From IMG/VR virus record IMGVR_UViG_3300045988_034843: DNA of 25,609 nucleotides; one strand, written 5' to 3'. Numbering within the stretch: position 1 is the first letter of the stretch; every line of letters starts with the position of its first letter. Positions 1,005-24,297 of this stretch are shown one piece after another. This DNA comes from a virus (lineage: Duplodnaviria > Heunggongvirae > Uroviricota > Caudoviricetes). A program made the position numbers and the translations under genes. The notes below the pieces were generated by a model, which searched no databases, was not told the DNA's origin, and worked only from the letters and a program-made list of their open reading frames with translations.

Positions 1005-1019
1005 TACCTTTCGGGTAAT
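1005..1019. promoter_or_regulatory. Dyad operator-like site TTACC-TTTCG-GGTAA (copy 1 of 6)
   Basis: Exact 5-bp inverted half-sites with 5-bp spacer, flanked A...T; 76 bp upstream of the ATG at 1095. Confidence 0.6.
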
Positions 1020-1055
1020 TTGCAAAACGTGCTGGATAGCAAACAAATTATTTGT

Positions 1056-1075
1056 TACTGTATAAACATACAGTT
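1056..1075. promoter_or_regulatory. LexA (SOS) box TACTGTATAAACATACAGTT
   Basis: CTGT-N8-ACAG with AT-rich spacer, close match to the E. coli LexA consensus TACTGTATATATATACAGTA; contains TATAAA (-10-like); 20 bp upstream of the ATG at 1095. Confidence 0.7.
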
Positions 1076-1094
1076 ATTGCATGGAGAAGATAAG

Positions 1095-1352
1095 ATGCAG
1101 CAGTATCACTATCCACTGGAAGACGGATTTACCGAAAGGATTCACACGCCGGGAGGCGTCAGGTCACTGGTGGAGGGATCGCACTTGATGAAATTACTCC
1201 GGGATCTCGATAAGGATGGATTTAATGTCGATGGCCCACTTGCCGAACTGACTGCACTGATTAACTACGTCACCAGCTCACAGATGTCTATGCAGGATCT
1301 GCAAACACATCTCGACTATTGTGCCGAACAATTACGAAAACAAACCCGGTAA
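1095..1352 (+). CDS. Small (85 aa) protein paralogous to the C-terminal domain of the Ant-like protein at 2503-3159; putative LexA-controlled antirepressor/induction factor
   Basis: Internal ATG of track ORF 972-1352 with GGAGAAG RBS 7 nt upstream; the 972 start would place the LexA box and dyad inside coding sequence; about 50 percent identity by eye to residues ~150-210 of the 218-aa Ant-like protein (IHTPGGV..LMKLL..DG..V.G..AELT...DLQTH). Confidence 0.6.
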   Translation: MQQYHYPLEDGFTERIHTPGGVRSLVEGSHLMKLLRDLDKDGFNVDGPLAELTALINYVTSSQMSMQDLQTHLDYCAEQLRKQTR

Positions 1353-1359
1353 ATTTAAA

Positions 1360-1375
1360 GGCCGCAAGAGCGGCC
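1360..1375. terminator. Hairpin GGCCGC-AAGA-GCGGCC between convergent genes
   Basis: 6-bp GC stem with 4-nt loop directly after the stop at 1352 and overlapping the minus-gene stop at 1375; T-rich on the minus-strand side. Confidence 0.5.
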
Positions 1376-2103
1376 TATCGTTTCGCTTTGTGCTCGTCCC
1401 AGCACGTTTTGCACCATGCCATTAAGCCATCCGCATTTTGATTATTAGGGTAAAAGCTTGTTCGTTTTCTGCGGACATTACAAATTGGGCACCACTTCAT
1501 ATGGCGTGTATTCTTTGGGCCATCGAGACACCTTGCACACCACTTAGTCAATCCATCTGGATTTTTTGACGATTTCCTGAATTTTTCATATGGTAGGTTT
1601 ATTCTGCATCGCAAGCACTGCTTGCTACCACTTGAAACTCTGTTAGCTGATTCTTCTTTTGGCGGCGATACAGAAGGTATTCTTGCTGGCTCTGATACTG
1701 CCTGAGGTGCTTTTTTAGATGACTGAGACGATATGTCATCACCAGGGAATCTTCCATGATATGCCGGACGCGTTGACACTCCAGGTGGAAGCTCAGCTGT
1801 AAACGGCTTTGGCTGAATCAGTTGCCTCTCTTTTGCTAACTCCTGCTGTTTATAATATGTCTGGATTACCGCACTATCATAAGCAGGAGGTGCGGAAATA
1901 TTAGGCGCATTACCTCCAGTTTTTTGAAACTGAGTAGAGGTGTGTTCTATCACCTGTGTACGATTAATCGTTATCTCCCCATCTTCGGTCTTTATCGTTT
2001 TGTTATGATTAACGACCGTACGATCAGAGATCTTAGTCTTGTTCTGGTTGATAACGTAAATAATCACCGCAACCACACCAACAACTATCCAGAAAACTTC
2101 CAT
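1375..2103 (-). CDS. Membrane-anchored protein with tandem C-x2-C-x22-C-x2-C zinc-ribbon-like repeats (242 aa); function unknown
   Basis: Track ORF; N-terminal hydrophobic helix (VFWIVVGVVAVIIYVI); C-terminus has two repeats CLRC...NPDGLTKWCARC and CPIC...NADGLMAWCKTC; GAGGAAAA RBS upstream of ATG at 2103. Confidence 0.7.
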   Translation of the reverse strand: MEVFWIVVGVVAVIIYVINQNKTKISDRTVVNHNKTIKTEDGEITINRTQVIEHTSTQFQKTGGNAPNISAPPAYDSAVIQTYYKQQELAKERQLIQPKPFTAELPPGVSTRPAYHGRFPGDDISSQSSKKAPQAVSEPARIPSVSPPKEESANRVSSGSKQCLRCRINLPYEKFRKSSKNPDGLTKWCARCLDGPKNTRHMKWCPICNVRRKRTSFYPNNQNADGLMAWCKTCWDEHKAKR

Positions 2104-2123
2104 TGCTTTTCCTCACAATAACA

Positions 2124-2138
2124 TTACCTTAAAGGTAA
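2124..2138. promoter_or_regulatory. Dyad operator-like site TTACC-TTAAA-GGTAA (copy 2)
   Basis: Centre 28 bp upstream of the minus-strand ATG at 2103; overlaps a candidate TTGATC-N17-TACCTT promoter on the minus strand. Confidence 0.6.
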
Positions 2139-2216
2139 TATCTTGCTTTCAGGTGATCAAGCGTTAAACGCAATCAACCAAATACGGTTGATTTTAATAT
2201 TTCTTCGCGTTTATCA

Positions 2217-2231
2217 TTACCTTTGCGGTAA
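2217..2231. promoter_or_regulatory. Dyad operator-like site TTACC-TTTGC-GGTAA (copy 3)
   Basis: Same half-sites and spacing; lies in the 400-bp intergenic region between the divergent genes at 2103 and 2503. Confidence 0.55.
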
Positions 2232-2321
2232 ATTTACATTGCACTCCTCTTGTGCCATAGTAATCGGGCACTGGCAAAATCCAGTGCCGGGATTGGTCTC
2301 CCGGATTACTAAGTGGCGCAT

Positions 2322-2344
2322 ACCACGCCAGACGTGGTTTTTTT
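2322..2344 (+). terminator. Rho-independent terminator-like hairpin in the leader upstream of the Ant-like gene
   Basis: ACCACG-CCAGA-CGTGGT stem-loop followed by TTTTTT(T); preceded by two further hairpins at 2267-2288 and 2287-2304. Confidence 0.5.
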
Positions 2345-2502
2345 ATGCGTATAGCACAGTCATGCCAGAATTATGGTGGGCTGAATGGGGGTCCGAAAGG
2401 ACGCCGGTACCACTTAGGCCGGTAAGACCAACTCCGTTCAGTTCACCACCATCTGATTGGTCTCAGCGGTGGTGATGTAATTCGCTAAGTGGAGACGCCA
2501 TC

Positions 2503-3159
2503 ATGAACGCTCAACTCATCCCCGTATTCAACGGCACTATATCTAACGAAACAGCCCTACTTTGTAATGCCCGCGATCTGCACGCTTTTTTAGGTGTTAA
2601 AAAGGTGTTTGCAGCATGGATTACAAATCGCATATCAGAATACGAATTCATTGAAAATCAAGACTATATTTTGCTTTCCAATTTGGGAAAGCAAACATCT
2701 GGTAGAGGCGGCCACAACCGCAAAGAGTACCACCTCACCCTTGATACAGCCAAAGAGCTGGCGATGGTCGAGCGTAACGAAAAAGGTCGCCAGGTGCGAC
2801 GCTACTTCATTGAATGCGAGAAACGTTTAAGACAACAAGAAACAAAAGTGGAGAAGGTCTTGTCAGGCTTCATGCCCGCCATTATGGAGGCGATCAAGCT
2901 GGAAGACAAAAAAGAATACAGCGCCCCACTGAAGCCCGGCTACCGCAGCCTGATTCACTCGCCGTCTGGTGTTCTCGGCCTGACTGAGAACTCACTGCTG
3001 ATGAATCTGCTGAACCAGTTACAGGAAGACGGGCACGATGTATCTGGCGCGGCGGCGGAGCTGACCACCATGTTCTGCTACATCGTTGGTGTGAGCAAAT
3101 GCCTGCGTGATATCCAGACCCACGCGGAGTACATCAACGACAAGGCAGGGTTCTTCTGA
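2503..3159 (+). CDS. Antirepressor-like protein, AntA-type N-terminal domain (218 aa)
   Basis: Track ORF; GGAGA RBS 7 nt upstream; N-terminus IPVFNG...[10 protein letters not shown]...F..W...RI.EYEF.EN.DY resembles the AntA/AntB antirepressor domain as I recall it; C-terminal third is paralogous to the 85-aa protein at 1095-1352. Confidence 0.7.
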
Positions 3160-3244
3160 CGAGCGGCGGCACATGGATGTGCCTACAATTATCAATAATT
3201 GTTTACACTCGTTGCAGTTAAAAGCATTATACTCATGTTTAAAA

Positions 3245-3259
3245 TTACCCGATTGGTAA
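3245..3259. promoter_or_regulatory. Dyad operator-like site TTACC-CGATT-GGTAA (copy 4)
   Basis: Centre 29 bp upstream of ATG 3281, downstream of a TTATACT -10-like element. Confidence 0.6.
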
Positions 3260-3280
3260 AGTCGATTGGTTGAGGTTCAT

Positions 3281-3607
3281 ATGAGCAGAAGATATGTCAA
3301 GGAGCTGGCTATAGAGTCTGGCACCCCTTTGGGTATCGTTCCTGGCTCCAACTATGCCAAGGCTTTAAACCGAGACTCTGTCGTCAAAGTTATATCAAGA
3401 GACATGAATATGGTCGGAGACGATCTCAGACGGTCAGAAAATCGTGTTTATGCTGAATATATAGTAAAGAACGGAAAAAAAATTGCAGCGCCTGCTGGCG
3501 GAAAATGGGCAATAGTGACAGGGAAAAACTCAAATGCAAGAGGAAAACCAGAAGCTAAAGGAATGTCCTTCGACAAATATGCAAAAATCTATTGGGCAAC
3601 CAAGTGA
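3281..3607 (+). CDS. Hypothetical protein (108 aa)
   Basis: ATG 3281 with GAGG 7 nt upstream (track ORF 3266-3607 trimmed to this ATG); AT-rich, lysine-rich; no motif I recognise. Confidence 0.55.
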   Translation: MSRRYVKELAIESGTPLGIVPGSNYAKALNRDSVVKVISRDMNMVGDDLRRSENRVYAEYIVKNGKKIAAPAGGKWAIVTGKNSNARGKPEAKGMSFDKYAKIYWATK

Positions 3608-4082
3608 TAACGAAGAAACTGAGTTCGAGGAAGTTGAGGAAGGGCTAAGTAACGAGATCATTCAACACCCAGATGCCTTCACAAGAGTTCTTGATCGCCC
3701 TGAAATTCAGGAGATAGTTGTCGCTCACCATGCGTTTCAGGGGCCGCTTCCTCCCCCCTATCTGCTTCGCGGGTATCAGGATATTTTACCTGATGCCCCC
3801 GAACGCATCTTCCAGTTGACGGAGAAGGAGTTTGCTCACCGCCAGAAAATGGAGGAAAAGGCACTTGACGGGGCTATTAATAGAGATAAACGTGGGCAGT
3901 GGTTTGGCCTGAGTGCAACTATTTTTACAGTAGCTTGTGCAACATTATTAGGTTTAACAGGTCATGAAGTTCTAGCTGGCACAGTGATCGGTACAGTTGT
4001 TGCAGTGGCTGGTATTTTCGTTCTTAGACAAAAACCAAGCATCAAGAAGAAATCTGAAGACAACAAACCTGAAGAAAAGTAA
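3534..4082 (+). CDS. Membrane protein with two C-terminal TM helices, possibly DUF2335-like (182 aa; alternative start 3579 gives 167 aa)
   Basis: Track ORF; overlaps the 3' end of the previous gene in another frame; conserved-looking stretch PLPPPYLLRGYQDILPDAPERIF...HRQ then hydrophobic segments FGLSATIFTVACATLLGL and VIGTVVAVAGIFVL; followed immediately by a terminator. Confidence 0.6.
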   Translation: MQEENQKLKECPSTNMQKSIGQPSDNEETEFEEVEEGLSNEIIQHPDAFTRVLDRPEIQEIVVAHHAFQGPLPPPYLLRGYQDILPDAPERIFQLTEKEFAHRQKMEEKALDGAINRDKRGQWFGLSATIFTVACATLLGLTGHEVLAGTVIGTVVAVAGIFVLRQKPSIKKKSEDNKPEEK

Positions 4083-4103
4083 GCCCGCGCTGCGGGCTTT
4101 TTT
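4082..4103 (+). terminator. Rho-independent terminator AGCCCGC-GCT-GCGGGCT + T6
   Basis: 7-bp GC-rich stem, 3-nt loop, T-run 4098-4103, directly after the stop at 4080-4082. Confidence 0.75.
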
Positions 4104-4175
4104 GTGGACGAAACAAAAGTCAGTGCTACACTCATTGACGCCACATTGAGGTGGCTTATAGATGGAAATTTCACA

Positions 4176-4337
4176 ATGAAAAAAGCATTTGCTGCACTGT
4201 TCGTTTTGTTGTCTCTGGTAGCTTCAACTCAGGCCTTTGCCGGTCGTTGTCAGCACGACAGCGACACTGCTGCTGACGGCTCCCGCTGCGGTGGGCGTTC
4301 TGCGGATTCCCGCCCGGGTGGCGGTGGCATTCGTTAA
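4176..4337 (+). CDS. Small predicted secreted peptide (53 aa) with N-terminal signal sequence
   Basis: Internal ATG of track ORF 4104-4337; MKKAFAALFVLLSLVASTQAFA looks like a Sec signal peptide with AFA cleavage motif; mature part Cys/Gly/Asp-rich; weak RBS. Confidence 0.4.
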   Translation: MKKAFAALFVLLSLVASTQAFAGRCQHDSDTAADGSRCGGRSADSRPGGGGIR

Positions 4338-4342
4338 AAACA

Positions 4343-4358
4343 AGGCCGCGAAAGCGGC
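4343..4358. terminator. Hairpin GGCCGC-GAAA-GCGGCC shared by convergent genes
   Basis: 6-bp GC stem with GAAA loop; the minus-strand reading is followed by TTGTTTTT, so it most plausibly terminates the minus-strand lipoprotein gene. Confidence 0.55.
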
Positions 4359-4360
4359 CT

Positions 4361-4372
4361 GTGACATGTCAC
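4361..4372. repeat. 12-bp perfect palindrome GTGACATGTCAC (copy 1 of 3)
   Basis: Exact palindrome abutting the hairpin at 4343-4358; overlaps the stop codon of the lipoprotein gene. Confidence 0.6.
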
Positions 4373-4749
4373 GCAACGCAATTATTACCGCGCCATGTAA
4401 CATTTTTAATAATCTTATCAGCACCAAACTCAACGTAAACAGAGCAACTGAAATGGAGTGTATAACCGCCATCAGTTGTTGCGTATGTGTTTGAATATAT
4501 AGTATTACCAATTAGATTAGACGTAGTATTATACGTTGTGGTTTGTGGTACGTTATAACTACCAGAGCTTGAGTAAACATACACTCTGTTTCCATCTGGA
4601 GATGTAAGCTCTCCCTGAGGATACCCCCACTGCTGAACCATTGCGTCTATACTCTGCCCGCGCCACGTAAGCATATTTCTTTCAAACTGTGCAGCTGACT
4701 GGCATCCAACGAGAAGCATAAATCCAAAAATCAAAAATACTTTTCTCAT
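4369..4749 (-). CDS. Putative lipoprotein (126 aa)
   Basis: Internal ATG of track ORF 4369-4785 with AGGGG RBS; MRKVFLIFGFMLLVGCQSA has a lipobox (LVGC); mature part Thr/Ser/Tyr/Asn-rich. Confidence 0.7.
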   Translation of the reverse strand: MRKVFLIFGFMLLVGCQSAAQFERNMLTWRGQSIDAMVQQWGYPQGELTSPDGNRVYVYSSSGSYNVPQTTTYNTTSNLIGNTIYSNTYATTDGGYTLHFSCSVYVEFGADKIIKNVTWRGNNCVA

Positions 4750-4834
4750 AATTACCCCTATCATGGAAAAACAGCACCAATCCACAAATTAACTAGTTAT
4801 TTTATTATTCTTCCGAACAATACAATTCCGAATA

Positions 4835-4960
4835 CTACAAAGCCGAACCATGCCGCTGCACGCAACAGAGATTCCAATTGAAACCCATTTTTATCAAAAT
4901 GTATGAATAGCATAAAAACGCTGCACATATTAGTACAATAAAAGTTATTTGAACCATCAT
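4835..4960 (-). CDS. Small hydrophobic peptide (41 aa), uncertain
   Basis: Own translation: AAGGAG RBS 4 nt before ATGATG at 4960, MMVQITFIVLICAAFLCYSYILIKMGF...; the track lists a different frame (4797-4985) for the same stretch, which lacks an RBS at its internal ATGs; only one of these, or neither, is real. Confidence 0.3.
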   Translation of the reverse strand: MMVQITFIVLICAAFLCYSYILIKMGFNWNLCCVQRHGSAL

Positions 4961-4968
4961 ATCTCCTT

Positions 4969-7443
4969 TTATTGCGGAGTGACATCCTGTGGTCGCCACC
5001 AGTATGTCTGGTTAAACTCTTTCTTCGAACGTTGCTCCATTTTACGCAAATAGCCTGGTGAAAAATACTCCTGCATCTGGTTAAAGATCATGTGATCGAG
5101 AGCCGCCTTCAAGTACCAGAGATTCGCACCAGGCATCAAACCTTTCCCCAGCTTCACCAGATCACCACCAGTCTGCTCACTCTTCCCTTCCACAGCATTT
5201 AACGGTATGCCCTGAGCAATCTTCACTACGTCATCAACCAGACCAGCTACCGGGCCAAGCATCGACGCCAGCGCGCCGCTTCCGTACCTAGTGTGATCTG
5301 ACAATAAAAAGTCACCGTAAAGGCCAAGACCACCACCTTTCAGTAGAGCACCAAGCCAGAATTTTGCGGCATCTTCTCCTGTCATCTCTCGAGGATTACG
5401 ACCAGACGCAAGGTCGTTAAGTTGCTGCGACAAAGCGCCAAGAATGGTCGTACTGGCAATAAACGTCGCAATATATGCCGCACGCCCACCAGCAGACGGC
5501 ATACCCATAGCGCGTGACCAGTGACGCATAACAACCGAGATAGGGAACGATTTAAACAGGAAAACACTTCTCGTTAATTCACCTTTCCATGTTCCACGCT
5601 GAATACCAGAACCGGTTATCAGTTGCTCACGTGCTCCCGGTGTAATAACAGCCATATCAACTTCTTCAGTTACGGCACCGAGCAGTTTACGCATTGCCTC
5701 AAATTTCACGCGTTCAGGCTCACCAAGATGTTTAACTGCTGAATCAGGGATACGCATAATGCTTTCCGGTGTCAGCATCGTATTATTACCGTTCCCCCAG
5801 TCCTCCTGTTTCGCCAGCTTCCATACGCTCCAGTCTGTGTCAGTAATCCCTTTGCTTTTCAGGATACGAAAATCAGAGTCATCGAGGCTACGAAGGTCTG
5901 GTGTCCGTGACACTACTTCTCCCAGGCTTCCCATCATGGTTACGCCATAGGCGCGCTTGTGCGCATCTGACCATGCTGTAAGCCCACTGGCACGCATTAC
6001 CGCCGTTGCCGCCCAACGAGACACTGACGGCCCCATATTATCCATCGCCCAGCGGTTAACGCTGCCAAGTAGAGATTCCATCGCCAGACCAGCGCGGCGC
6101 GCCCGCGCAAGTTCTGTACGGTTCGTTGGGTCCATAGCTTCAAGCTGGTTGCGGAATAACTGGTTCATTGGAAGGTTGGTAACCTTCGCAGACAGATACA
6201 TGGTTCCAAGATCAGAGAACGATGACAGCAACGCGGATCCGAGTCTGCTGGCAACCAGCCAGTTGCGGATATTGTCAGACCATCGCGCGATGTGCGGATT
6301 CGCTACAGGCTGTGTCTTTCCGGAAATAAAGTTGTACAGATTCTCTGTGTTGTTCGCCAGCCGCTCGACTTTACCGGTTTTACTCGGGTTAGCTGTTGCC
6401 GTTTCTGCCTTCACCTGATCAAGAAGAGAGCGGAAAACATGATCGGGGTTTGGGCCATATGTTTCCACCAGTGCAATATCTTTACTGATACCTTCCAGGT
6501 GACCGACCATGATTTCCCATAGAGAGCGATCGCCATAAAGTTGCTGATATTGCAGATAGGAATCTGCATCTTTGAAATGTATCTGTCGTGATGCATTACC
6601 ACGGTTAGCACGTGCGCCGGAAATTCGCATTCCGGTATCAGTAAGCTTATTCAGCCCACCAGTAGCGATCGTGTTATAAGCCTCTCCAAGAAATGAAGAC
6701 AACTCGGCATCGTTCATCAGTTGTCCATCGGCTCGGATATAATATTTGCGATCCAGCTTACCTATAACATCGCTAACCCACTTATCCTTTGATACTGCCC
6801 CAACCTTTTCCATAGAATGATGTTGAGGGATCCCCCAGTTTTCGAGATAGCCAATGTCCCCACCAGCATCATTAAACCGGCGGCGCAGCAGCTCTGTAAC
6901 TTCTCTCCACGCCTTAGCACCGTTTCTTGCTTTAGCATTGCCAGTATTTTGCCCCCGCATTTCATATACCAGGTCACGTACGCCCGCTTCATCTTCAAAC
7001 AGACCAAAAAAGCGAGGATCAACTGCTTCGAATGCCTCCTGCAATTGACTCAATGCATAATCACGGGTGGCTTTTGTTCTGGATTCAACAGAGAGGAAAT
7101 TAGATTTACCGTCTGCATTAAAAGCTATAGTACGGTTAAGAGCGCCAAGTTTCCCATCAGCCCCTTGATAGCTATTGATAAATTTATCCAATCTCTGACG
7201 CGCGGCTATAGTGAGAGCCACACGACGTTTCTTTAATGCCGCTTCTCGCTGTAATTCTTCAGATGCCAATTGTGCTGCTCGATATAGCCGCTCTGATTCG
7301 GAAAGTTGTCGCCACGACATAGGGTCATCACGAGCAATGGAGCGCATATTTCGATAAATGCGGTCTTCAATGTTCTGTATTTCTCGCGCCGTTAACATGC
7401 GCTGCGCCGCCTGCTGAACCGCTTGTATACATTCCTGTCTCAT
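4969..7443 (-). CDS. Large internal virion / DNA-ejection protein (824 aa), gp16-like by position
   Basis: Track ORF; last gene of the structural operon before the accessory island; size and position consistent with a podovirus ejection protein. Confidence 0.6.
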   Translation of the reverse strand: MRQECIQAVQQAAQRMLTAREIQNIEDRIYRNMRSIARDDPMSWRQLSESERLYRAAQLASEELQREAALKKRRVALTIAARQRLDKFINSYQGADGKLGALNRTIAFNADGKSNFLSVESRTKATRDYALSQLQEAFEAVDPRFFGLFEDEAGVRDLVYEMRGQNTGNAKARNGAKAWREVTELLRRRFNDAGGDIGYLENWGIPQHHSMEKVGAVSKDKWVSDVIGKLDRKYYIRADGQLMNDAELSSFLGEAYNTIATGGLNKLTDTGMRISGARANRGNASRQIHFKDADSYLQYQQLYGDRSLWEIMVGHLEGISKDIALVETYGPNPDHVFRSLLDQVKAETATANPSKTGKVERLANNTENLYNFISGKTQPVANPHIARWSDNIRNWLVASRLGSALLSSFSDLGTMYLSAKVTNLPMNQLFRNQLEAMDPTNRTELARARRAGLAMESLLGSVNRWAMDNMGPSVSRWAATAVMRASGLTAWSDAHKRAYGVTMMGSLGEVVSRTPDLRSLDDSDFRILKSKGITDTDWSVWKLAKQEDWGNGNNTMLTPESIMRIPDSAVKHLGEPERVKFEAMRKLLGAVTEEVDMAVITPGAREQLITGSGIQRGTWKGELTRSVFLFKSFPISVVMRHWSRAMGMPSAGGRAAYIATFIASTTILGALSQQLNDLASGRNPREMTGEDAAKFWLGALLKGGGLGLYGDFLLSDHTRYGSGALASMLGPVAGLVDDVVKIAQGIPLNAVEGKSEQTGGDLVKLGKGLMPGANLWYLKAALDHMIFNQMQEYFSPGYLRKMEQRSKKEFNQTYWWRPQDVTPQ

Positions 7444-7448
7444 TTAAT

Positions 7449-16169: not shown

Positions 16170-16187
16170 ATACACTCCTGCAATAAA

Positions 16188-16201: not shown

Positions 16202-16219
16202 TTGTCTGATCCGCGAGGC

Positions 16220-16555: not shown

Positions 16556-16565
16556 CAATATCACC

Positions 16566-17003
16566 TTAACCAGTTACTTTTGAGCGGATCGGATACGGCG
16601 TATTGGCATCAACATCAAGATTGATACCCGCAGTGAATTTGCCAGCCGTTAGTGGGCCAGTTGCGACGGAGTAGTTAACACGCAGATATCGCTGAACACC
16701 GGCTGGCACCTTTGCAGAAACAACTCGCTTACCTGCTGTCAGGGTGGCCTTTGCCAGTGCGCCACTATCATAAATAGTGGACCATGAGCTGTTATTATCA
16801 CTCGTCTGCAACTGGATGTTTACAGTTGCCTCACCACTTGCCGTGGCGGCTTCGTTAACCAGCACCCAAAACTCAAGCGGATAACCCACGCCGATATCGC
16901 GACGGTTTCCATCAATTGGACCGAGATCGATTACGTCAGTAGAAGCCGCGGTATTCGTAACCGCCTGAGCTTCGGAGAACATCAACAGTTTGTCGGTGAT
17001 CAT
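16566..17003 (-). CDS. Putative head decoration / capsid accessory protein (145 aa)
   Basis: Track ORF; GGAGA RBS; immediately downstream of the major capsid gene; Thr/Ala/Gly-rich. Confidence 0.45.
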   Translation of the reverse strand: MITDKLLMFSEAQAVTNTAASTDVIDLGPIDGNRRDIGVGYPLEFWVLVNEAATASGEATVNIQLQTSDNNSSWSTIYDSGALAKATLTAGKRVVSAKVPAGVQRYLRVNYSVATGPLTAGKFTAGINLDVDANTPYPIRSKVTG

Positions 17004-17054
17004 CTTCTTTCTCCATTAGTGGGCCTGTTGCGGCCCACAGGTTAATAACAGGCG

Positions 17055-18047
17055 TTACACCACGCGGGCTTCTGTTTCCAGAAGTGCGTCAGTTTCGCGA
17101 ATCGGCACACCACGAATTTCTGTCCACCATTCGCCTTCTGTCTCTTTCACGCTGATCGCCAGAGAACTCTTCTCCAGAGATTGCAGGTCAAGCACTTCGT
17201 TAATGGTTCTGTTCATGTAGAAAATAGGACGTCCCATCCCACGATTTGGGATTCGATGAAGGGCACGAATCATCAGTTTTGCGATATTCGCAGCAGTAGA
17301 AGGAGCGTCAAGATTGCTGACATCGATGTTTGCAATGCGAACAACATAGCGCCAGTCACGCAATGTCAGCCCGTTGTCCCACTTATAATGGGTACGATAA
17401 CCTTCGTACTTGCCGCCATTAGCATCTTCCAGTGTCACCTGGCCTTTATCTTCCATCTGGATGCCAGCCTTCTGCCCTTTCGGGAAGATGCCATGCACGG
17501 TGTTTTCGCCCCACACCACTAACCAGATTGAAGTGTTATCTGTACCCGTGCCACCAGCATCAATGATGTTCTGAGCATTACCCGCAGACAGGCTGGAATA
17601 GCGGGAGGACAGTCCCATAAACTGCTGAGGGTTAACGCTGGAATCACCGTAAAACAGCGTCTGCGCCATCGCCTGATTCATCGCTTCAATAAATGCTCGG
17701 TCTTCAGACAGGCGGAATTCGGCAGTATTACCGTTCAGATCAGCCAGAGACTTATCGACTTCAGCATAGGTTTCCAGCATGCCAATGGAATCAGTGACCT
17801 GCACCGTTGTTGATTTGCTCGGTTGTACGCCATAGTTCAGCAAACGCCAAGTAGCGGAAGGCAAACCAGAACGAATGGTGGTTCGGTGTCCGGTAGGAAG
17901 GTTTCCTTCAACAAAAGGCATATCCTGAAGGATTGGGTTGGTTTGACTGAGAAGCTCGATAATCTTATCGACTTTCCCGTTTGGATCGACGCGCTTACCC
18001 CAGTCAGCCAGCGTTAGCGCAGTTAAGCCTTTAACAGCCATTGTCAT
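17055..18047 (-). CDS. Major capsid protein (330 aa; start may be the second ATG at 18041)
   Basis: Track ORF; directly downstream of an acidic scaffold-like gene and upstream of the decoration-like genes; size typical for podovirus capsid proteins; GAGAGGAA RBS. Confidence 0.6.
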   Translation of the reverse strand: MTMAVKGLTALTLADWGKRVDPNGKVDKIIELLSQTNPILQDMPFVEGNLPTGHRTTIRSGLPSATWRLLNYGVQPSKSTTVQVTDSIGMLETYAEVDKSLADLNGNTAEFRLSEDRAFIEAMNQAMAQTLFYGDSSVNPQQFMGLSSRYSSLSAGNAQNIIDAGGTGTDNTSIWLVVWGENTVHGIFPKGQKAGIQMEDKGQVTLEDANGGKYEGYRTHYKWDNGLTLRDWRYVVRIANIDVSNLDAPSTAANIAKLMIRALHRIPNRGMGRPIFYMNRTINEVLDLQSLEKSSLAISVKETEGEWWTEIRGVPIRETDALLETEARVV

Positions 18048-18055
18048 TTCCTCTC

Positions 18056-18751
18056 TTATTTTCCATAGAGCACTTCGGCCGCACTACGCTGGCCTTCATT
18101 ACCACCGGTGACCATGCCATCTTCAGACATCGCCTTTCCGATTTTCACGAACGTTTTGACCAGATCAGGGTGATTACCCAGCCCGGTGGTGTTCAGATAT
18201 TCTTTGAGTTCAGGTGTCCCGAACTGGTCAAGCGCACGCTGTGCGGCGCTAAGGTTAGAAATCAACTTGTCGCCACCGATTTCTTTGTCAGCTTTTACAT
18301 CCGCAGCCCACTGCTCGGTTGTTTTCTGCCAGGCTTCTGCCTGGCGCTGCTGAACACCTGCCAGAATCTTCGGATAAGCATCAACCAGCTTTTGCGCTTG
18401 CTCGTTGGTCAGGTTTAGTTCTCGCGCCACCGGCTCGAACTCCTTCAACGCTTCTGTATCCAGCTCTACGCCTTCGGCAGCCTGAAACTCGTACTTTTCA
18501 GGCGCACCCTCTGGTTTATCGCCGTCCTTTTTTTCATCCTGCTTATCGTTTTCAGGCTTTTTGTCATCAGCAGGTTTATCGCCATCAGCAACAGGTTGTG
18601 GCTTATCACCTTCCTGTTGTGATGGATCACCAACTGGAGCAGGGTTATCACCTGCAGGCGCTGACGGTTCTGACGCAGCCGGAGCTGCTCCACCATCGAC
18701 TGGTTGCTCATTGCAAAGACGGCGATACAGCAAACGCTCAAATAAATTCAT
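18056..18751 (-). CDS. Scaffolding-like protein (231 aa)
   Basis: ATG at 18751 (track ORF 18056-18757); strongly acidic, Pro/Ala/Asp/Lys-rich low-complexity N-terminal half; position between portal and capsid. Confidence 0.55.
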   Translation of the reverse strand: MNLFERLLYRRLCNEQPVDGGAAPAASEPSAPAGDNPAPVGDPSQQEGDKPQPVADGDKPADDKKPENDKQDEKKDGDKPEGAPEKYEFQAAEGVELDTEALKEFEPVARELNLTNEQAQKLVDAYPKILAGVQQRQAEAWQKTTEQWAADVKADKEIGGDKLISNLSAAQRALDQFGTPELKEYLNTTGLGNHPDLVKTFVKIGKAMSEDGMVTGGNEGQRSAAEVLYGK

Positions 18752-18753
18752 GA

Positions 18754-19050
18754 TCACTCCTGTTCACTGGCCTCTTTGGCCATCTTCAAATACTGTTCAG
18801 GGCAATGCGCCATAACGCGCTGAAACAGTTCCAGCGCCAGATTGCGTTGCCCCTCATTAAATGCCATTGCCATAGCGTCCATCGGTGAGATAGCGGAAAA
18901 CACACGGCCTTTCTCCAGCACCGACCAGACAACGCGACGCCCCTGTTCACTGCTCATGACAAAGCAAATGTCATCAATTTCACGCTGTGCCATGTCACGT
19001 TGCTTACGGGCGTTTTCTTCTTTCAGTTGATCGTCTTCGTAATCTGTCAT
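18754..19050 (-). CDS. Hypothetical protein (98 aa)
   Basis: Track ORF; ATGA overlap with the portal stop; charged, no motif recognised. Confidence 0.5.
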   Translation of the reverse strand: MTDYEDDQLKEENARKQRDMAQREIDDICFVMSSEQGRRVVWSVLEKGRVFSAISPMDAMAMAFNEGQRNLALELFQRVMAHCPEQYLKMAKEASEQE

Positions 19051-20726
19051 TGTGATTGCCCACCCTGACCACTAACTGCATTCGCCATAGCTGACAAAAC
19101 ACTCGGATCCGAAGTTTTAGCTTCGCTTAGCGTCTTGGCACCCTGTGCCGCCGCCATCCCCATCGCCATCATTTGTTGCTGCTGTTGTTGCTGTGCCCGT
19201 TGCTGGCGAGCCTGCTCAACCTGTTCCTGCGGAACAATGACGGTTGGAGACACTCCGGACATATCAGCGAATGCATCGATCGCCTGATCAACGTTGAGTT
19301 TGTCGAGAGCTTCTGGTTTCGCTTGCGCAAGTTGACCAATGAAGTTGACCGTAGACACCAGACTGGACAGGCCGATAGACTTCTGCGCCTGAGCCATGAC
19401 GGAAATGTATTCGACCTTCAGGGGCATACCTTCCATCGCGTCAGGCGGTGGCGGCAGCATGTTTTTACGCACCATCATCGAGAAAGCGCGGTCAATGAGA
19501 GGATTAAGACATTCGTCGTTCAGACGCTCCAGAACCGGCCCCAACATCAGAAGTTTTTCTTCTTTCATTTCGATCACCGCTTCAACAGGCATCGAGCGGG
19601 TATTGATGTTCTGCAACATCATGAACAGATCGACAAAGTAGGCGCTGTTAATGATTTGACGGGTGTCCTGAATGTCTGCCACCAAATCTGCTGTACTGGG
19701 GTTAACCAGATAAGCAGGCCTGAAACCATCCTGACCAGTAATCTGATCGATATACGTGATGTCGCCAGGAAGAAGGGAGGCACGCTGATTCTTGAGGGAA
19801 GTCGGAGCAACCATCGGCGGATTGGTGGCTTTATCAATCAACTGCGACTTGCGCTTCTGGAGAAGCTGCAATGCCTTAACAGGTCCAAGCGCCAGCATAC
19901 CCGGGCATGATGATCCATAAACATCTTCGCCGTTAACTTCCCAGCGCGGAGCCATAATTGGAAACTCATCGAATCCGGACTCACGCAACAACTTGTCGTT
20001 ATCGCCACCAACCTCGTAATAAACCGATTTGAATGGCTTGTTCTTGCTATCCAGCTTCGATGTATCGCGGTCAATGTTCGGGTAAACCGAATGCATCACT
20101 TCAATCCACTTCTCGTAGGTTCCGCTTTCCCACATGCTTTTTACGGATTCGCTGACGTTATTTAGCCCGAACTCCTGAACAAGCTGACGAACAGTCATAG
20201 AGAACTTGCGAAAACAGGTGTCCACACTGCCACGAGGTGAGTTAGCCAGGTAGTAACTGCCTATCGGGAATGGCATTGTGCGAATGATGTCCTCGTCATC
20301 CTCCAGCACTGCCATTGCACCAGTGCTGTATGTGCCGAGGCTTCCGTATAACTGCGGCAGCGACTGATAGAGATTCGACTTATTGAACATATCGTTCATG
20401 CGGTTCTGCACCGCCTCAAGCCACAACTTAACAGGGCCATAATCCATCATTTCAGGATCTGGCGTAGCCAGGCGAAACCACGGACGCGCGGGGCTTGTGA
20501 TGCCTGACATCATGCCGCTGGCGAGAGTGCGCGCCGCCATAGTCCCGGTCGAATCAATAATGCGTGTATTGCGTCGATCGTTACGGTTAACCTCAGAAGT
20601 CAGAAAGCGGGAACCACGCGGGTTGATGTAATCACTCAACTCGCGCCAGTGCGGCTCGAACGACTGACGCTCGCTTTCAAGTTGTGCGAACTGTTTGTTC
20701 AATCGCTCTTTAGTTGTTTCCGCCAT
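19047..20726 (-). CDS. Portal protein (559 aa)
   Basis: Track ORF; position between terminase and scaffold/capsid, size appropriate; Gln-rich C-terminal tail; GGAGTCATTGAAATG initiation region. Confidence 0.6.
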   Translation of the reverse strand: MAETTKERLNKQFAQLESERQSFEPHWRELSDYINPRGSRFLTSEVNRNDRRNTRIIDSTGTMAARTLASGMMSGITSPARPWFRLATPDPEMMDYGPVKLWLEAVQNRMNDMFNKSNLYQSLPQLYGSLGTYSTGAMAVLEDDEDIIRTMPFPIGSYYLANSPRGSVDTCFRKFSMTVRQLVQEFGLNNVSESVKSMWESGTYEKWIEVMHSVYPNIDRDTSKLDSKNKPFKSVYYEVGGDNDKLLRESGFDEFPIMAPRWEVNGEDVYGSSCPGMLALGPVKALQLLQKRKSQLIDKATNPPMVAPTSLKNQRASLLPGDITYIDQITGQDGFRPAYLVNPSTADLVADIQDTRQIINSAYFVDLFMMLQNINTRSMPVEAVIEMKEEKLLMLGPVLERLNDECLNPLIDRAFSMMVRKNMLPPPPDAMEGMPLKVEYISVMAQAQKSIGLSSLVSTVNFIGQLAQAKPEALDKLNVDQAIDAFADMSGVSPTVIVPQEQVEQARQQRAQQQQQQQMMAMGMAAAQGAKTLSEAKTSDPSVLSAMANAVSGQGGQSQ

Positions 20727-20740
20727 TTCAATGACTCCGG

Positions 20741-20947
20741 TTACTGACCAAGCAGCGTTTTACCGCTGGTATTAGCAGTTGATGTGTCGCCCTGAGAACC
20801 GGTAAGCAGCGTAGAACTACGACCAGCAGCAGCGCGACGGCGACGAGTTTCTTCGTCGCGGGCATCAACAACGGCGGCATCCTGCTCCTGTGGTGCTGCC
20901 TGAACTTCTGGTGTTGCAGGCACTGATGGTGAGCTACCCATGCACAT
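20741..20947 (-). CDS. Small hypothetical protein (68 aa) upstream of portal
   Basis: Track ORF; initiation region GGAGTCATTGATATG nearly identical to that of the portal gene; the overlapping alternative frame 20728-20967 was not preferred. Confidence 0.4.
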   Translation of the reverse strand: MCMGSSPSVPATPEVQAAPQEQDAAVVDARDEETRRRRAAAGRSSTLLTGSQGDTSTANTSGKTLLGQ

Positions 20948-21036
20948 ATCAATGACTCCGTACGCAATTAAATTATTACCAATTTAACCACATATGATTT
21001 ATTTATCGTAGACAGTTGACATTTAACGCGCGAATT

Positions 21037-21051
21037 ATTACCTTTCAGGTA
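21037..21051. promoter_or_regulatory. Dyad operator-like site TTACC-TTTCA-GGTAA (copy 5)
   Basis: Same half-sites and spacing; preceded by TTGACA (21016-21021) 17 bp before TACCTT; lies between the 20947 minus-strand start and the plus-strand tRNA. Confidence 0.6.
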
Positions 21052-21374
21052 ACCAAAGAGTTCATTCCGGTTACTAACCTGACTGGCTTGTCGTTAAATT
21101 GAACAGGTGGAGTGAGCTTTTATTTTGAGCAGTACGGCGTATGGCACATGCGCCGATAGCGGTCTGGATGCGTTTAAGGGGCACCCTCCCTGGCTGTGGC
21201 AAACGAACCAGGTAGCCGGAATGTGCAAGTCGAGCGGTTTTATTCCGCGCACGGGGATTCACCATCCCGGCGATTCGGTGTGACGCCTCGGAAGAGACGA
21301 GGGTACAACGATGAGAGCATTTATGGAGCCGCGACAAAGTGTGGCGCCTTAACAGGCTAAGTGCTCTCAGCGTT

Positions 21375-21451
21375 GTGGCATTAGCTCAGTTGGACAGAGC
21401 AACCGCCTTCTAAGCGGTTGGTCGCAGGTTCGAATCCTGCATGCCACGCCA
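21375..21451 (+). tRNA. tRNA-Arg (anticodon UCU), 77 nt with encoded CCA
   Basis: Hand-folded cloverleaf: acceptor GTGGCAT/ATGCCAC, D-arm GCTC-AGTTGGACA-GAGC, anticodon stem ACCGC/GCGGT with loop CTTCTAA, T-arm GCAGG-TTCGAAT-CCTGC, discriminator G, CCA; close to but not identical with E. coli argU as I recall it. Confidence 0.85.
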
Positions 21452-21494
21452 GAATCACGCCTAAGGACCGTGATGCCAGAAGTTCCAGGGGCTT

Positions 21495-21536
21495 GGCGGT
21501 GATGGTTTCCCTTGAAGGACTATCACCGCCCTTTTT
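21495..21536 (+). terminator. Rho-independent terminator after the tRNA
   Basis: GGCGGTGAT...ATCACCGCC 9-bp stem followed by CTTTTT. Confidence 0.65.
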
Positions 21537-21614
21537 ACAGCAGGGCGCCATTGCGATGGCTTCATGCTGTAAACCAGTACAGCCACGGAAGGCATAACTC
21601 ATTGCTTCCAGTTC

Positions 21615-21638
21615 GCCCGGTTCGCCGGGCATTTTTTT
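21615..21638 (+). terminator. Rho-independent terminator-like hairpin abutting the RBS of the 140-aa gene
   Basis: GCCCGG-TTCG-CCGGGC followed by ATTTTTTT, then AAGGTGA RBS and ATG at 21650. Confidence 0.6.
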
Positions 21639-21649
21639 AAGGTGAGATC

Positions 21650-22072
21650 ATGAAAACAGCCGACATGCTAGCTAAATATCTAAATGAATGGCCGTGCAAA
21701 TATGTACGCATTGTTCAGGGTGATGATTCAATTTTTTATGGTGTTTTTGCAGGAAATGAAATGCTTTGTGAAGCAATTCCAGGTGAGCGACTTGCCGGGT
21801 TAACGCTTAGCGATGACCATGGAATAGGAGTTACTTGCCATGACTGGATTTCAGCGCAGAAAACTGAAATGGAAAAAGGCAATGTGTTTGATATTTCTCG
21901 CGCTGTATACGCCAAAGAAAAAAGTGATGATGATTACATGCGCGAAAACTTATACAACATGAAGTTACAATGCCTGGCTGAAGTGCTTAGTAAAAGATCT
22001 TTACTTGATGTGGTTGGTGCTGAGCAGGACGCCAAGGCAATCAACGCCGCATTCGATAAAATAACCTTCTAA
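21650..22072 (+). CDS. Hypothetical protein (140 aa), opposite-strand insert (moron) between terminase and portal
   Basis: Track ORF; AAGGTGA RBS; AT-rich relative to flanking structural genes; bracketed by terminators; no motif recognised. Confidence 0.65.
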   Translation: MKTADMLAKYLNEWPCKYVRIVQGDDSIFYGVFAGNEMLCEAIPGERLAGLTLSDDHGIGVTCHDWISAQKTEMEKGNVFDISRAVYAKEKSDDDYMRENLYNMKLQCLAEVLSKRSLLDVVGAEQDAKAINAAFDKITF

Positions 22073-22076
22073 CGCC

Positions 22077-22088
22077 GTGACATGTCAC
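22077..22088. repeat. 12-bp perfect palindrome GTGACATGTCAC (copy 2)
   Basis: Identical 16-mer context (CGTGACATGTCACAAT) to copy 3; sits between the stop at 22072 and the terminator at 22093. Confidence 0.6.
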
Positions 22089-22092
22089 AATC

Positions 22093-22117
22093 AGCCCGCC
22101 GATTCGCGGGCTTTTTT
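22093..22117 (+). terminator. Rho-independent terminator AGCCCGC-CGATTC-GCGGGCT + T6
   Basis: 7-bp stem and T-run; the T-run overlaps the last codons of the minus-strand terminase gene. Confidence 0.7.
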
Positions 22118-23591
22118 ATGCAAAAGGATCATAGTCTGTGATGGCTTTGCCTTGCTGGTTCTGCTGCCCGGGAATTCGCAGACGCTTCGACACAGGGAAC
22201 GCAAACGTCAGCAGTAGCGCATCGCCTTTACCAGGAGAACGCCCAAGTCGCTCTTTGATATCTTCCTTCGGTTCGATAACGATTTTACCGTCCACGCGAA
22301 CTTTGTACTCTGCCGTCGACAGGTCGTCCGCTGTTTCCTGGTCATCCAGCATGCCGCCGAGCCTCAGCCATGTCTTGCATGAGTTGAACATCTCCCCACG
22401 CTTGTTGAGCATCTGCGGGTCAGTAGACGCGCCACCGAACGGAACAAGTTGCCATGTACGACCCCAGCCGTCACCGATTGACTTCAAACCGGTTCCGTAA
22501 CCGAAGTCGATGAACACCGCGTCAGCCTGATACTGGTCTTCAAAGTCAGCGATACGCTTCGCCATAATCAGATCGTCGGTAGTCTTGTTGCCAGTCCACA
22601 GCACCTTACTGTGTAGCCCCTGCCGCAGGTATATCACCGCGTCATCAACGCCTGAATATGCCGGGTCAACACCGATTATCACCGGAGCATGTGCAACCTG
22701 CGCAGCGGTTACCACCCGTTTCATTGCCTCGTCAGTAAGACCGGTAGGGATAAACTGCAATTCAGATGCATCAGGGAATATGCCACGCACACGGATTTTA
22801 ACGAAGTCGCTATCTTCCCCGTAGTCATCAACCCATTTCTGCAACTGCTGTTTGTTGGTGCCTTCCACCGTCCTGCTGTCAATCTGCGCAGTTTTCCAGC
22901 GGTGTTTGTATTTGCGGAAACATTCACGGAAACGCCCGGTGTTACGTGTAGGGTTTCCGAAAGCCACCCAGATAATCTCAGTGTCTTCGTCCGTTAGCGC
23001 ACCCTCGGCAACTTCCCACACCAGATCCGCAATGTTCGACGCTTCATCAAATACCACGATGATGCGTTTACGCTCGTTGTGTAGTCCGGCGAATGCCTCA
23101 GTGTTGTGCTCAGACCAGGGGATTGCGTCAGCTCGCCACCGCTTGTCGTGCCCAGGGTCATTGCTGTACATCGCGGTAGCGGTACAGGTAAACCAGTCTT
23201 TCGTGATAGCAAGGTTTGACCACTTGATAATTTCCGGCCAGGTCTTCGTTCGTAGCTGGTTGTCGGTGTTGGCGGTCACCACGACCTTACAATCCTCGCA
23301 AGTGGACATGCCCCAGTTGATCAGCATTGAGATGAATGCGGATTTACCAATACCGTGACCAGAAGCACGTGCCAGCATAAGCGGCTGATATCGCGTCTCT
23401 GGATTCTGCAGGTGATCACGTATCTCTCGGAACGCATCAGCCTGCCACTGACGTGGGCCGGTGGCATGTGCCAGTTCAGTCCCCTCTTCCCCCCATGGGA
23501 ACGCATAGAGGGCATAGCCAAGCGGATCGTGAGTGAACCCTGCAATATCCTCGATTAACTGCTCTTCAGGAGATAACGCTGTATCTGTCAC
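22116..23591 (-). CDS. Terminase large subunit (491 aa)
   Basis: Track ORF; Walker A-like GHGIGKS, Walker B-like IIVVFDEAS, C-terminal acidic nuclease-like region (GVDPAYSGVDD); ATGA overlap with the upstream small subunit. Confidence 0.8.
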   Translation of the reverse strand: MTDTALSPEEQLIEDIAGFTHDPLGYALYAFPWGEEGTELAHATGPRQWQADAFREIRDHLQNPETRYQPLMLARASGHGIGKSAFISMLINWGMSTCEDCKVVVTANTDNQLRTKTWPEIIKWSNLAITKDWFTCTATAMYSNDPGHDKRWRADAIPWSEHNTEAFAGLHNERKRIIVVFDEASNIADLVWEVAEGALTDEDTEIIWVAFGNPTRNTGRFRECFRKYKHRWKTAQIDSRTVEGTNKQQLQKWVDDYGEDSDFVKIRVRGIFPDASELQFIPTGLTDEAMKRVVTAAQVAHAPVIIGVDPAYSGVDDAVIYLRQGLHSKVLWTGNKTTDDLIMAKRIADFEDQYQADAVFIDFGYGTGLKSIGDGWGRTWQLVPFGGASTDPQMLNKRGEMFNSCKTWLRLGGMLDDQETADDLSTAEYKVRVDGKIVIEPKEDIKERLGRSPGKGDALLLTFAFPVSKRLRIPGQQNQQGKAITDYDPFA

Positions 23592-24187
23592 TGATTGCCA
23601 TCCTGACGTTCTTTCAGTCTCTTCCTGGCTGCCGCTATGCGATCAGCAATTGTCACATTCACATTAACATCCAGGCGTTCTTTGAATGCGTTGACGTCGA
23701 CGTGCTTACCAATCAGTTCGAGGTTCTTCACCTTGTCAGGCCATTTAATTTTTTTGAGGATGCCAACCAGCTCTTTCTCGTCTCCACGGCCTTCGAACAT
23801 GTCGGCCAGTTCGAAACCTGTCAGGTACTGCCGCCAGACCTTAGGCCATTCCGAGACCGGCTTGATGCTCATATCGTCGTTGAGAATGTCAATCACGTCC
23901 ATCTGGTCGATCTCCACCAGGCGCATGAGAACGTAATCAGCACTGACGCGCATTCGTTTGTTGCGCTCCTCCATCAACTCGGCAATCCGTTTCTGAATGC
24001 GTTCATCGCGCATCATGACACTGGCTTTAACTGCCGCTGTATTTGGGGAGAATCCTGCATTAATCGCAGCCTGAGTCTGGTTTTCAGGCGTTTTGATGTA
24101 TGACTGGCAATAAGCCTCCTGCATTGCTGTTAGTGGCTTAAATTGCGTTGATTTGCGTTTATAGGTTTTAGGTTCAGCAGGCATCAT
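23588..24187 (-). CDS. Terminase small subunit (199 aa from ATGATG at 24187)
   Basis: Track ORF 23588-24265 begins at a TTG; the in-frame ATGATG at 24187 is preferred; helix-turn-helix-like TAMQEAYCQSYIKTPENQTQAAINAGFSP; directly upstream of and overlapping the large subunit. Confidence 0.55.
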   Translation of the reverse strand: MMPAEPKTYKRKSTQFKPLTAMQEAYCQSYIKTPENQTQAAINAGFSPNTAAVKASVMMRDERIQKRIAELMEERNKRMRVSADYVLMRLVEIDQMDVIDILNDDMSIKPVSEWPKVWRQYLTGFELADMFEGRGDEKELVGILKKIKWPDKVKNLELIGKHVDVNAFKERLDVNVNVTIADRIAAARKRLKERQDGNQ

Positions 24188-24204
24188 AACCACCGTGGTA
24201 ATAG

Positions 24205-24219
24205 TTACCGTTGTGGTAA
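24205..24219. promoter_or_regulatory. Dyad operator-like site TTACC-GTTGT-GGTAA (copy 6), embedded in GGTAA-TAG-TTACC-GTTGT-GGTAA-TAG-TACC
   Basis: Centre 25 bp upstream of the terminase small-subunit ATG; extra half-sites on both sides form a tandem GTGGTAATAG(T)TACC direct repeat. Confidence 0.55.
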
Positions 24220-24230
24220 TAGTACCATGC

Positions 24231-24256: not shown

Positions 24257-24297
24257 AGTATTCAAAACCCATCAAATTCATCATGCATAACCCACTC

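Follow-up and report, generated by a model that had tools for sequence, protein, structure and literature searches.

The described sites closest to the element analyzed here are those of the repressor gp38 of Salmonella phage epsilon15. Records AY150271.2 and NC_004775.2 of this phage contain seven features entered as 'protein_bind', 'repressor' and 'lysogeny', each of which reads (A)TTACC-N5-GGTAAT. In the related phage SPC32H the switch between lysis and lysogeny reportedly consists of a repressor, Rep, and its antirepressor, Ant, as set out by Kim and Ryu in 2013 and by Kim et al. in 2016. We have analyzed a stretch of viral DNA of 25,609 nucleotides (IMG/VR record IMGVR_UViG_3300045988_034843, hereafter called the window) in which the same dyad recurs. 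The phage family of the window shares with epsilon15 the identical dyad ATTACC-N5-GGTAAT, the genus Uetakevirus and the order of the genes. We conclude that the dyads are very probably the operators of the main prophage repressor, a 194-amino acid (aa) protein of the Rep/gp38 type that is a homologue of SPC32H Rep and epsilon15 gp38.

Escherichia phages phiv142-3 and phiV10 share 97% identity with the window; for Enterobacter phage Tyrion and Salmonella phage epsilon15 the figure is 76-81%. The window sequence also occurs as a prophage in hundreds of E. coli genomes. On the strength of these identities we take it to be the late region of an epsilon15/phiV10-like (Uetakevirus) podovirus prophage of E. 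coli. Read from right to left, the minus strand carries a small regulator gene, terS and terL; there follow a small plus-strand unit with a tRNA-Arg gene, then gp3, portal, head and tail genes, an accessory island (970-4800) and the start of the tailspike gene. The closest complete relative is a prophage lying between guaA and yfgI, here called L001, which is 98% identical over 96% of the 25,000 bases queried.

A pattern search of the window finds the exact dyad TTACC-N5-GGTAA six times, at 1004-1018, 2124-2138, 2217-2231, 3245-3259, 21038-21052 and 24205-24219. A first-pass annotation, made from the sequence alone, had the number right and had placed the first and fifth copies one base away from their true positions. 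It had also given the motif as ATTACC-N5-GGTAAT; this full form is present at two of the six exact sites, and at the remaining four just one of the two half-sites has the sixth base. There is a seventh copy with one mismatch, TAACC-N5-GGTAA, at 24187-24201, 18 bp from the 24205 site. Base composition predicts 0.025 exact copies against the six observed (Poisson P(>=6) = 3e-13), and no match to the dyad arose in 100 dinucleotide-preserving shuffles of the window. In an unbiased count of all 5-mer dyads with spacers of 0-12 in the window, TTACC-N5 ranks first, with 6 copies versus 3 for the next. All six exact sites lie in non-coding DNA, which makes up 8.4% of the window (P ~ 4e-7), a count that relies on ATG 24187 as the start of terS, the one used in epsilon15, Tyrion and SPC32H, in place of the TTG at 24265 chosen by PGAP and in the phiV10 record. 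The dyad is in excess over chance and, with that start of terS, restricted to non-coding DNA, as the first-pass annotation had stated.

Comparison with relatives places these sites within a conserved set. The annotated repressor sites of epsilon15 include 12-27 upstream of terS, 2931-2947 upstream of gp3 and 19895-19911 in the spacer between gp19 and the tail fibre gene, and these are the orthologues of the window sites at 24205, 21038 and 1004, respectively. The positions shared with epsilon15 are those before terS and before gp3/portal, the spacer that separates ant(gp19) from the tail fibre gene, the leftward early promoter and the slot upstream of ruvC/DUF1064; several further copies of the dyad in epsilon15 (33341, 33358, 24704 and 35969) are omitted from its record. 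Epsilon15 differs in lacking the isrK-C4-AntA / BRO island, and so has no counterparts of the sites at 2124, 2217 and 3245, and the host of the window phage is Escherichia. Motif and principle are already contained in the public annotation of epsilon15, so the feature is largely known, and the three island sites are new instances of it. Nothing relevant to the motif strings emerged from full-text searches of the papers available. Phages phiV10, epsilon15, Tyrion, SPC32H and TL-2011b and a Klebsiella prophage each have 8-11 exact copies together with conserved copies having one mismatch, at the same intergenic positions. Alignments show that the operators upstream of terS, gp3 and the tailspike gene are kept in phages of Escherichia, Salmonella, Enterobacter and Klebsiella with diverged flanking intergenic DNA. 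The operator forms an island of identity within diverged DNA upstream of gp3 and in the ant-tailspike spacer, and lies inside a conserved block upstream of terS. TTACC-N5 ranks first among the dyads of the window and likewise in 13 phages and prophages that encode Rep (14 sequences in all), among them six enterobacterial prophages found via Rep, from Superficieibacter, Erwinia, Klebsiella, Citrobacter (two) and Scandinavium. The conservation in homologous prophages that the first-pass annotation had looked to is thus found across genera. A chance origin, or a dispersed repeat devoid of function, would be in keeping with so short a motif, and is next to impossible in view of the 0.025 copies expected, the empty shuffles, the confinement to non-coding DNA and positions that are kept from genus to genus.

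The pattern of conservation also bears on the kind of molecule that is recognized. In a consensus of 79 distinct sites from 13 sequences the half-sites are fixed and the spacer is variable and A/T-rich, with A or T as the central base in 98% and A at -1 in 69%. Three of the dyads are 20-30 nt upstream of start codons and could fold in the transcript into stems of 5-7 bp, raising the idea that they act as RNA hairpins in 5' leaders, as processing sites, attenuators or translational operators. Such stems would be weak, with a predicted stability of -3.1 to -4.5 kcal/mol, and they lack a U-tract. An invariant stem sequence with a variable spacer is the pattern of protein-DNA recognition and not of base-pair covariation, and the conserved single-mismatch variants TCACC, GTACC, GGTGA and GGTAT are never compensated. 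Moreover, several dyads are upstream of the -35 element and hence outside the transcript of the adjacent promoter. We have consequently rejected the RNA hairpin, which we regard as highly improbable.

The immunity region lies outside the window, and it can be inspected in L001. Three dyads are present between the gene for a cro-like protein and that for the 194-aa helix-turn-helix (HTH) repressor, and another is downstream of cro. Two dyads 62 bp apart bracket the leftward early promoter TTGACA-N17-TAATTA just downstream of rep, another pair with 62-bp spacing is located upstream of the DUF1064 gene (62-bp pairs of L001 include 43175/43237 and 40078/40140), and a dyad with one mismatch adjoins int; a TTACC-N5-GGTAT copy is found beside the integrase gene in every genome examined. 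The array between rep and cro is present in L001 and in every other relative examined. This arrangement is the layout of prophage repressor operators. It resembles the OR1-3/OL1-3 operators of lambda in having a three-site array between divergent genes for a repressor and a cro-like protein, HTH-read dyads, and one operator that abuts the -35 of the repressor promoter. Lambda differs in that its operators are confined to the immunity region, and its late genes are under Q antitermination, not under CI sites at the late genes.

In lambda OR the operators are shared by CI and Cro. By analogy the sites might be used mainly by the cro-like lytic repressor (76 aa, encoded next to rep), or shared between it and Rep, so that the dispersed copies would lower early and accessory promoters during lytic growth and not maintain lysogeny. 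The lambdoid OR-like layout of the three-site array is in accord with this, and the cro-like protein matches a PHROG of transcriptional repressors. The depositors of the epsilon15 record, however, assign the sites to the repressor, and sharing with Cro is plausible and compatible with Rep binding, adding to that explanation and not replacing it. As a replacement we consider it unlikely.

When all sites are pooled, adjacent dyads prefer separations of 17-18, 48 and above all 62 bp; the start-to-start spacing is 62 bp in 20 of the neighboring operator pairs counted, and such pairs bracket promoters. A scan of IMG/VR for dyad pairs 62 bp apart yields at least 120 stretches, mostly contigs of ~40 kb. 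Of the 120 matches listed, 91 encode Rep in the fetched piece, and the remaining stretches among the matches listed are mostly short or have the pair near an end.

The Rep of L001 (42533-43117) matches the structure of SPC32H Rep (PDB 5D50) over its full length with E=3.5e-42; it is a protein of the HTH_3/XRE type related to SPC32H Rep. A published summary that cites Kim et al. (2016) describes SPC32H Rep as a tetramer that binds palindromic sites and is disassembled by Ant (PMC9638917), and a tetrameric Rep would fit the recurrent 62-bp operator pairs. The repressor of the near-identical phage ZX5 is 99.5% identical to L001 Rep, and its overexpression lowered the transcripts of holin and endolysin by >99.9%. 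In Pfam the significant HTH_3 match of L001 Rep falls in the C-terminal half (residues 106-147), the half that was crystallized as 5D4Z (tetramerization and Ant binding), and the N-terminal domain, reported to be DNA-binding, has a weak YdaS/Cro-like match only.

Our stand-ins for a covariation test are the presence or absence of the dyad relative to distant homologues of the N-terminal domain, and the comparison of isrK modules described below. L001 and epsilon15 Rep are 43% identical, and the sequence NLVNRW is invariant in five aligned Rep proteins of 43-78% identity. The unchanged half-site fits this invariant stretch. An (N/T)LVNRW stretch occurs in the Rep proteins of the 13 sequences that, besides the window, have TTACC-N5 as top dyad, and other residues stand there in five loci that have distant homologues of the Rep N-terminal domain only (from Paraburkholderia, Hydrogenovibrio and Thiomicrospira). 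No exact dyad is found in these five loci, where there is a single match with one mismatch, at the level of chance.

The antirepressor is encoded within the window. The gene ant (1095-1352, plus strand) specifies a small antirepressor of Rep that is 88% identical to SPC32H Ant, and a canonical LexA box CTGTATAAACATACAG is present at 1058-1073, 22 nt upstream of its start. The position of the LexA box before ant therefore points to SOS induction acting through Ant, and not through cleavage of the repressor. SPC32H has in common with the window family the Rep homologue, Ant, the LexA box upstream of ant and the dyad at the same genome positions, and it differs in the absence of an accessory island, the small ant being all that separates its structural genes from the tailspike gene. 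The proposal of the first-pass annotation that the dyads constitute the operator set of one HTH regulator of the phage is upheld by the rep-cro array of L001, the repressor annotation of epsilon15 and the co-occurrence with Rep. Its statement that the regulator is not identifiable in the window is also borne out, as rep is located beyond the point in L001 that matches the right end of the window.

How might Rep act at these sites? We suggest that Rep would read A-TTACC-(A/T-rich N5)-GGTAA-T through paired N-terminal HTH domains, and that its operators would not be limited to the immunity region, with some 15 copies on or beside sigma-70-type promoters around the genome. In the lysogen Rep would then silence the early, terminase and tRNA/moron promoters together with those of acquired cargo, including the isrK-C4-antirepressor module. 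Within the window, promoter hexamers are overlapped or abutted at five of the six exact sites. The operators lie mostly on or next to sigma-70-like promoters, and the distance to the start codon is incidental. The distances from dyad center to the starts at 2103, 3281 and 24187 had been given correctly (28, 29 and 25 bp). From these positions Rep is expected to occupy each site of the window, and repression would be by promoter occlusion or blocked escape at 2124, at 2217 (on the first promoter), at 3245, at 21038 (on the plus-strand promoter) and at 24205/24187. At the 1004 site, and at the isrK promoter, where the 2217 site adjoins the -35, the outcome could be repression, looping or even activation.

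Use of a half-site as a -10 element was considered as a general rule and rejected. A -35 matching at least five of six positions is found for 10 of 99 TACCnT orientations, and in control windows for 5 of 693. A single site and its orthologues account for most of the ten. The rule is therefore true of a subset only.

Four of the predicted Rep operators lie in or beside the accessory island. The first, ATTACCTTTCGGGTAAT (1003-1019), is in the divergent ant-tailspike spacer, with its right edge 1 nt from a -35-like hexamer TTGCAA (1020-1025) facing ant; phiV10, Tyrion, SPC32H and TL-2011b have kept this operator between flanks that differ. The second, ATTACCTTAAAGGTAAT (2123-2139), precedes by 21 nt the ATG (2103) of the minus-strand gene 1375-2103, and its half-site provides a -10-like hexamer TACCTT on the minus strand (2137-2132), 17 nt after TTGATC (2160-2155). 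The third, ATTACCTTTGCGGTAAA (2216-2232), is situated between two plus-strand promoters in tandem. The dyad begins on the last base of the -10 of the first (TTGATT 2188-N18-TATCAT 2217) and stops 1 nt short of the -35 of the second, the isrK promoter (TTTACA 2233-N17-TGcCATAGT 2261), the 5' end of IsrK being at 2268. The 2217 site is kept in phiV10 (20497), TL-2011b and Tyrion, and the 2124/2217 pair, 93 bp apart, also occurs in TL-2011b at 34385/34478. The fourth, ATTACCCGATTGGTAAA (3244-3260), occupies approximately +9 to +23 of the promoter TTTACA 3202-N17-CATTAT 3230, 22 nt before ATG 3281. In TL-2011b a different cargo gene fills the 3281 slot, and it too has an operator, abutting a TACTAT -10.

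Behind the 2217 operator region lies a cargo module on the plus strand (2268-3159), comprising the small RNA (sRNA) IsrK (2268-2344), the C4 antisense RNA (2369-2453) and an antirepressor gene with an AntA domain (2503-3159). The Rfam scores are 67.7 bits for isrK and 61.2 bits for C4, both above the gathering thresholds, and the Pfam match to AntA has a value of 4e-26; IsrK and C4 are in the leader of the gene. The stop codon of a small upstream open reading frame (ORF) overlaps the ATG of the antirepressor gene in the sequence ATGA at 2503-2506. The module matches the isrK-orf45-anrP layout of Gifsy-1, including the ATGA overlap (PMC4825925). It appears as a P1 immI / Gifsy-1-like module (IsrK being an Hfq-binding sRNA) inserted between the structural genes and the tailspike gene of a phage that already has its own small Ant.

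The origin of the operator can be judged from isrK modules elsewhere. No TTACC dyad is present in the 168 nt upstream of isrK in APSE-1, Yersinia YpM_41, Hafnia yong2, CP-1639 or IdasGreatGrand, five unrelated phages in which the isrK promoter is an ordinary TTGACx-N17-TATAnT. The isrK modules of the epsilon15-like phages Tyrion and TL-2011b carry an upstream dyad. Therefore the operator travels with the Rep-type phage and not with the cargo.

Phages P1 and P7 offer a functional analogy. The operators of their C1 repressor are spread over the whole genome, and one of them, Op51, is at the immI operon (c4 RNA-icd-ant). Like Rep, C1 is one repressor with many scattered operators, one of them at the promoter of a C4 RNA and antirepressor, and in the window a C4 RNA and an AntA gene stand behind operator-bearing tandem promoters. 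The two repressors are unrelated, however, and the P1 operators are asymmetric, 17-bp sequences where those of the window family are symmetric 5-N5-5 dyads.

A broader proposal can be built on these observations, which we put forward tentatively and think rather doubtful as a whole. Rep would be a genome-wide regulator, and its operator a portable repressible-promoter element in which the half-site TTACCTT itself could serve as a TAnnnT -10, as at 21038 and 2124. Each unit of cargo acquired in the late region might then have gained its own operator, namely isrK-C4-AntA, the gene at 3281, the TL-2011b gene in the same slot and the tRNA/moron unit. The fixed 62-bp operator pairs may match a tetrameric Rep, and operators that end 1-2 nt before a -35 (at the rep promoter, the isrK promoter and the TTGCAA on the ant side) may activate. 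If so, the repressor would keep IsrK and C4 expressed in the lysogen with the upstream tandem promoter off, as does C1 at P1 immI.

The remaining predicted operators are associated with core late genes. The small terminase gene terS (23588-24187, minus strand), the first gene of the packaging operon, lies behind two of them, both written on the minus strand. O1, TTACCACAACGGTAAC (24204-24220), abuts a conserved extended -10, TGGTACTAT (24227-24219). O2, TTACCACGGTGGTTA (24187-24201), is the imperfect copy, which spans the ribosome-binding site of terS and extends to the A of the first ATG; phiV10, epsilon15, Tyrion, TL-2011b and several prophages likewise have an imperfect copy there. One order is kept in seven genomes: the stop codon of the regulator gene, a palindrome GTGACATGTCAC, an intrinsic terminator, the extended -10 TGnTAyTAT, O1 starting from the last T of the -10, O2 and the terS ATG. 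The arrangement suggests a -35-independent promoter for the packaging genes that would be repressed by Rep. With the TTG start of L001 (as annotated by PGAP) and of the phiV10 record, the coding sequence takes in both operators and the terminator (24239-24256), and in epsilon15, Tyrion and SPC32H terS starts at the ATG equivalent to 24187/24184. Conservation favors the ATG, and the PGAP/phiV10 start probably buries a terminator and two operators within the coding sequence.

The regulator gene just upstream of terS (24306-24644) encodes a phrog_536 'transcriptional regulator', and its product might be imagined as a late-gene activator that uses the dyad to switch on packaging, head and accessory genes. 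The gene lies in the window directly upstream of the terS control region, and several dyads are upstream of late or accessory genes. Yet the dyad overlaps the -10/+1 region of early promoters and fills the rep-cro region, a placement of repressor type, and at terS, 2124, 3245 and 21038 it overlaps a -10 or start site, which is not the position of an activator. We find an activator at the dyads very unlikely, and another motif, considered below, is a better candidate for a late-promoter element. The phrog_536 protein itself was rejected as the dyad-binding protein: it has no match in Pfam, NCBIfam or PDB, and the placement of sites at early promoters argues against it.

On the portal side the predicted Rep operator ATTACCTTTCAGGTAAC (21037-21053) lies between the gp3/portal operon on the minus strand and the tRNA-Arg/moron unit on the plus strand. 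Its half-site is the -10 (TACCTT, 21039-21044) of a promoter on the plus strand, whose -35, TTGACA at 21016-21021, is perfect and whose spacer is 17 nt. The operator, the TTGACA and their separation of 16 nt are conserved in seven genomes, the spacer and upstream sequence not. This promoter points to the tRNA-Arg gene and a 140-aa ORF, away from the portal operon. The first-pass annotation had tied the dyad to the portal gene; it does lie upstream of gp3/portal, but the conserved promoter that it overlaps faces the opposite way. The tRNA-Arg gene (anticodon UCU, 21375-21451, plus strand) follows this TTGACA-N17-TACCTT promoter, which the operator overlaps, and does not share the strand of the late genes. 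It is overlapped by a doubtful 83-aa ORF that phiV10 and TL-2011b have annotated on the other strand (21381-21632).

The head of the portal operon introduces the second motif. The small gp3-like gene heading the portal/head operon (20741-20947, minus strand) has a conserved 85-nt leader with CATATGTGGTT at 20986-20996, a copy of CATATrTGGTT. In every genome examined this motif, followed by a TA-rich hexamer ~9 nt on, is found upstream of exactly three late units, gp3/portal, tailspike and the lysis cassette. In the window it occurs on the minus strand at 964-974 and 20986-20996, and the third copy is upstream of the lysis genes in L001 and five further sequences (L002-L006), outside the window. 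We regard CATATrTGGTT as a candidate late-promoter or activator site that is distinct from the Rep operator.

Several points weigh against Rep as the regulator of all these sites. The window DNA has no rep gene; in L001 it is situated ~5 kb beyond the point matching the right end of the window, so the presence of the repressor in this particular prophage is deduced from its relatives. Rep homologues occur in 37 phage records, at 43-100% identity; both the half-site and NLVNRW are kept in all of them, with the possible exception of one weak partial Pseudomonas match, and they include no pair of changed specificity. The operators at gp3, tailspike and lysis genes are 36-48 nt upstream of CATATrTGGTT, which is not a classical position for occlusion, and in L001 and TL-2011b the lysis-gene copy of the motif has no operator. 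Direct repression of these three late units by Rep is therefore doubtful. The operator-free lysis copy likewise weakens the idea, which we tried and dropped, that the operator is an obligatory part of late promoters.

Repressor sites that are scattered through a genome are also found in mycobacteriophages, for which a published study notes multiple asymmetric operators (PMC1934351). The stoperators bound by gp71 of L5/L1 resemble the sites of the window in being numerous, outside the immunity region and in short intergenic spaces. They are, however, asymmetric and orientation-dependent and act on elongating polymerase, whereas the window sites are symmetric and, in five of six cases, placed at promoter hexamers.

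Apart from the operators, a second motif specific to the family, the 12-bp palindrome GTGACATGTCAC, merits description. Perfect copies occur three times in the window (4361-4372, 22077-22088 and 24298-24309), where 0.08 would be expected even with one mismatch, and each has a stop codon on one side and an intrinsic terminator on the other (4343-4360, 22093-22112 and 24239-24256, respectively). Of these three places, at least two also hold the palindrome in each of the relatives phiV10, epsilon15, Tyrion, SPC32H and TL-2011b and in the prophages of Klebsiella and Citrobacter. It has no annotation in the epsilon15 record, and none of the papers available to a text search contains it. Candidate roles are a protein site at terminators, an antitermination signal and a boundary between modules.

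Operators of a Rep-type repressor would account for the recurrence of a short dyad throughout the late region in a common family of prophages of E. coli and Salmonella. They provide a map of the predicted targets of the repressor, including the terminase promoter and the sRNA and antirepressor cargo, which could be used to predict what is silent in the lysogen. Beyond the public annotation, what is added is that accessory modules also found in unrelated phages carry the operator only in phages of the Rep type, that operator pairs have a fixed 62-bp spacing, and that the start of terS should probably be corrected.

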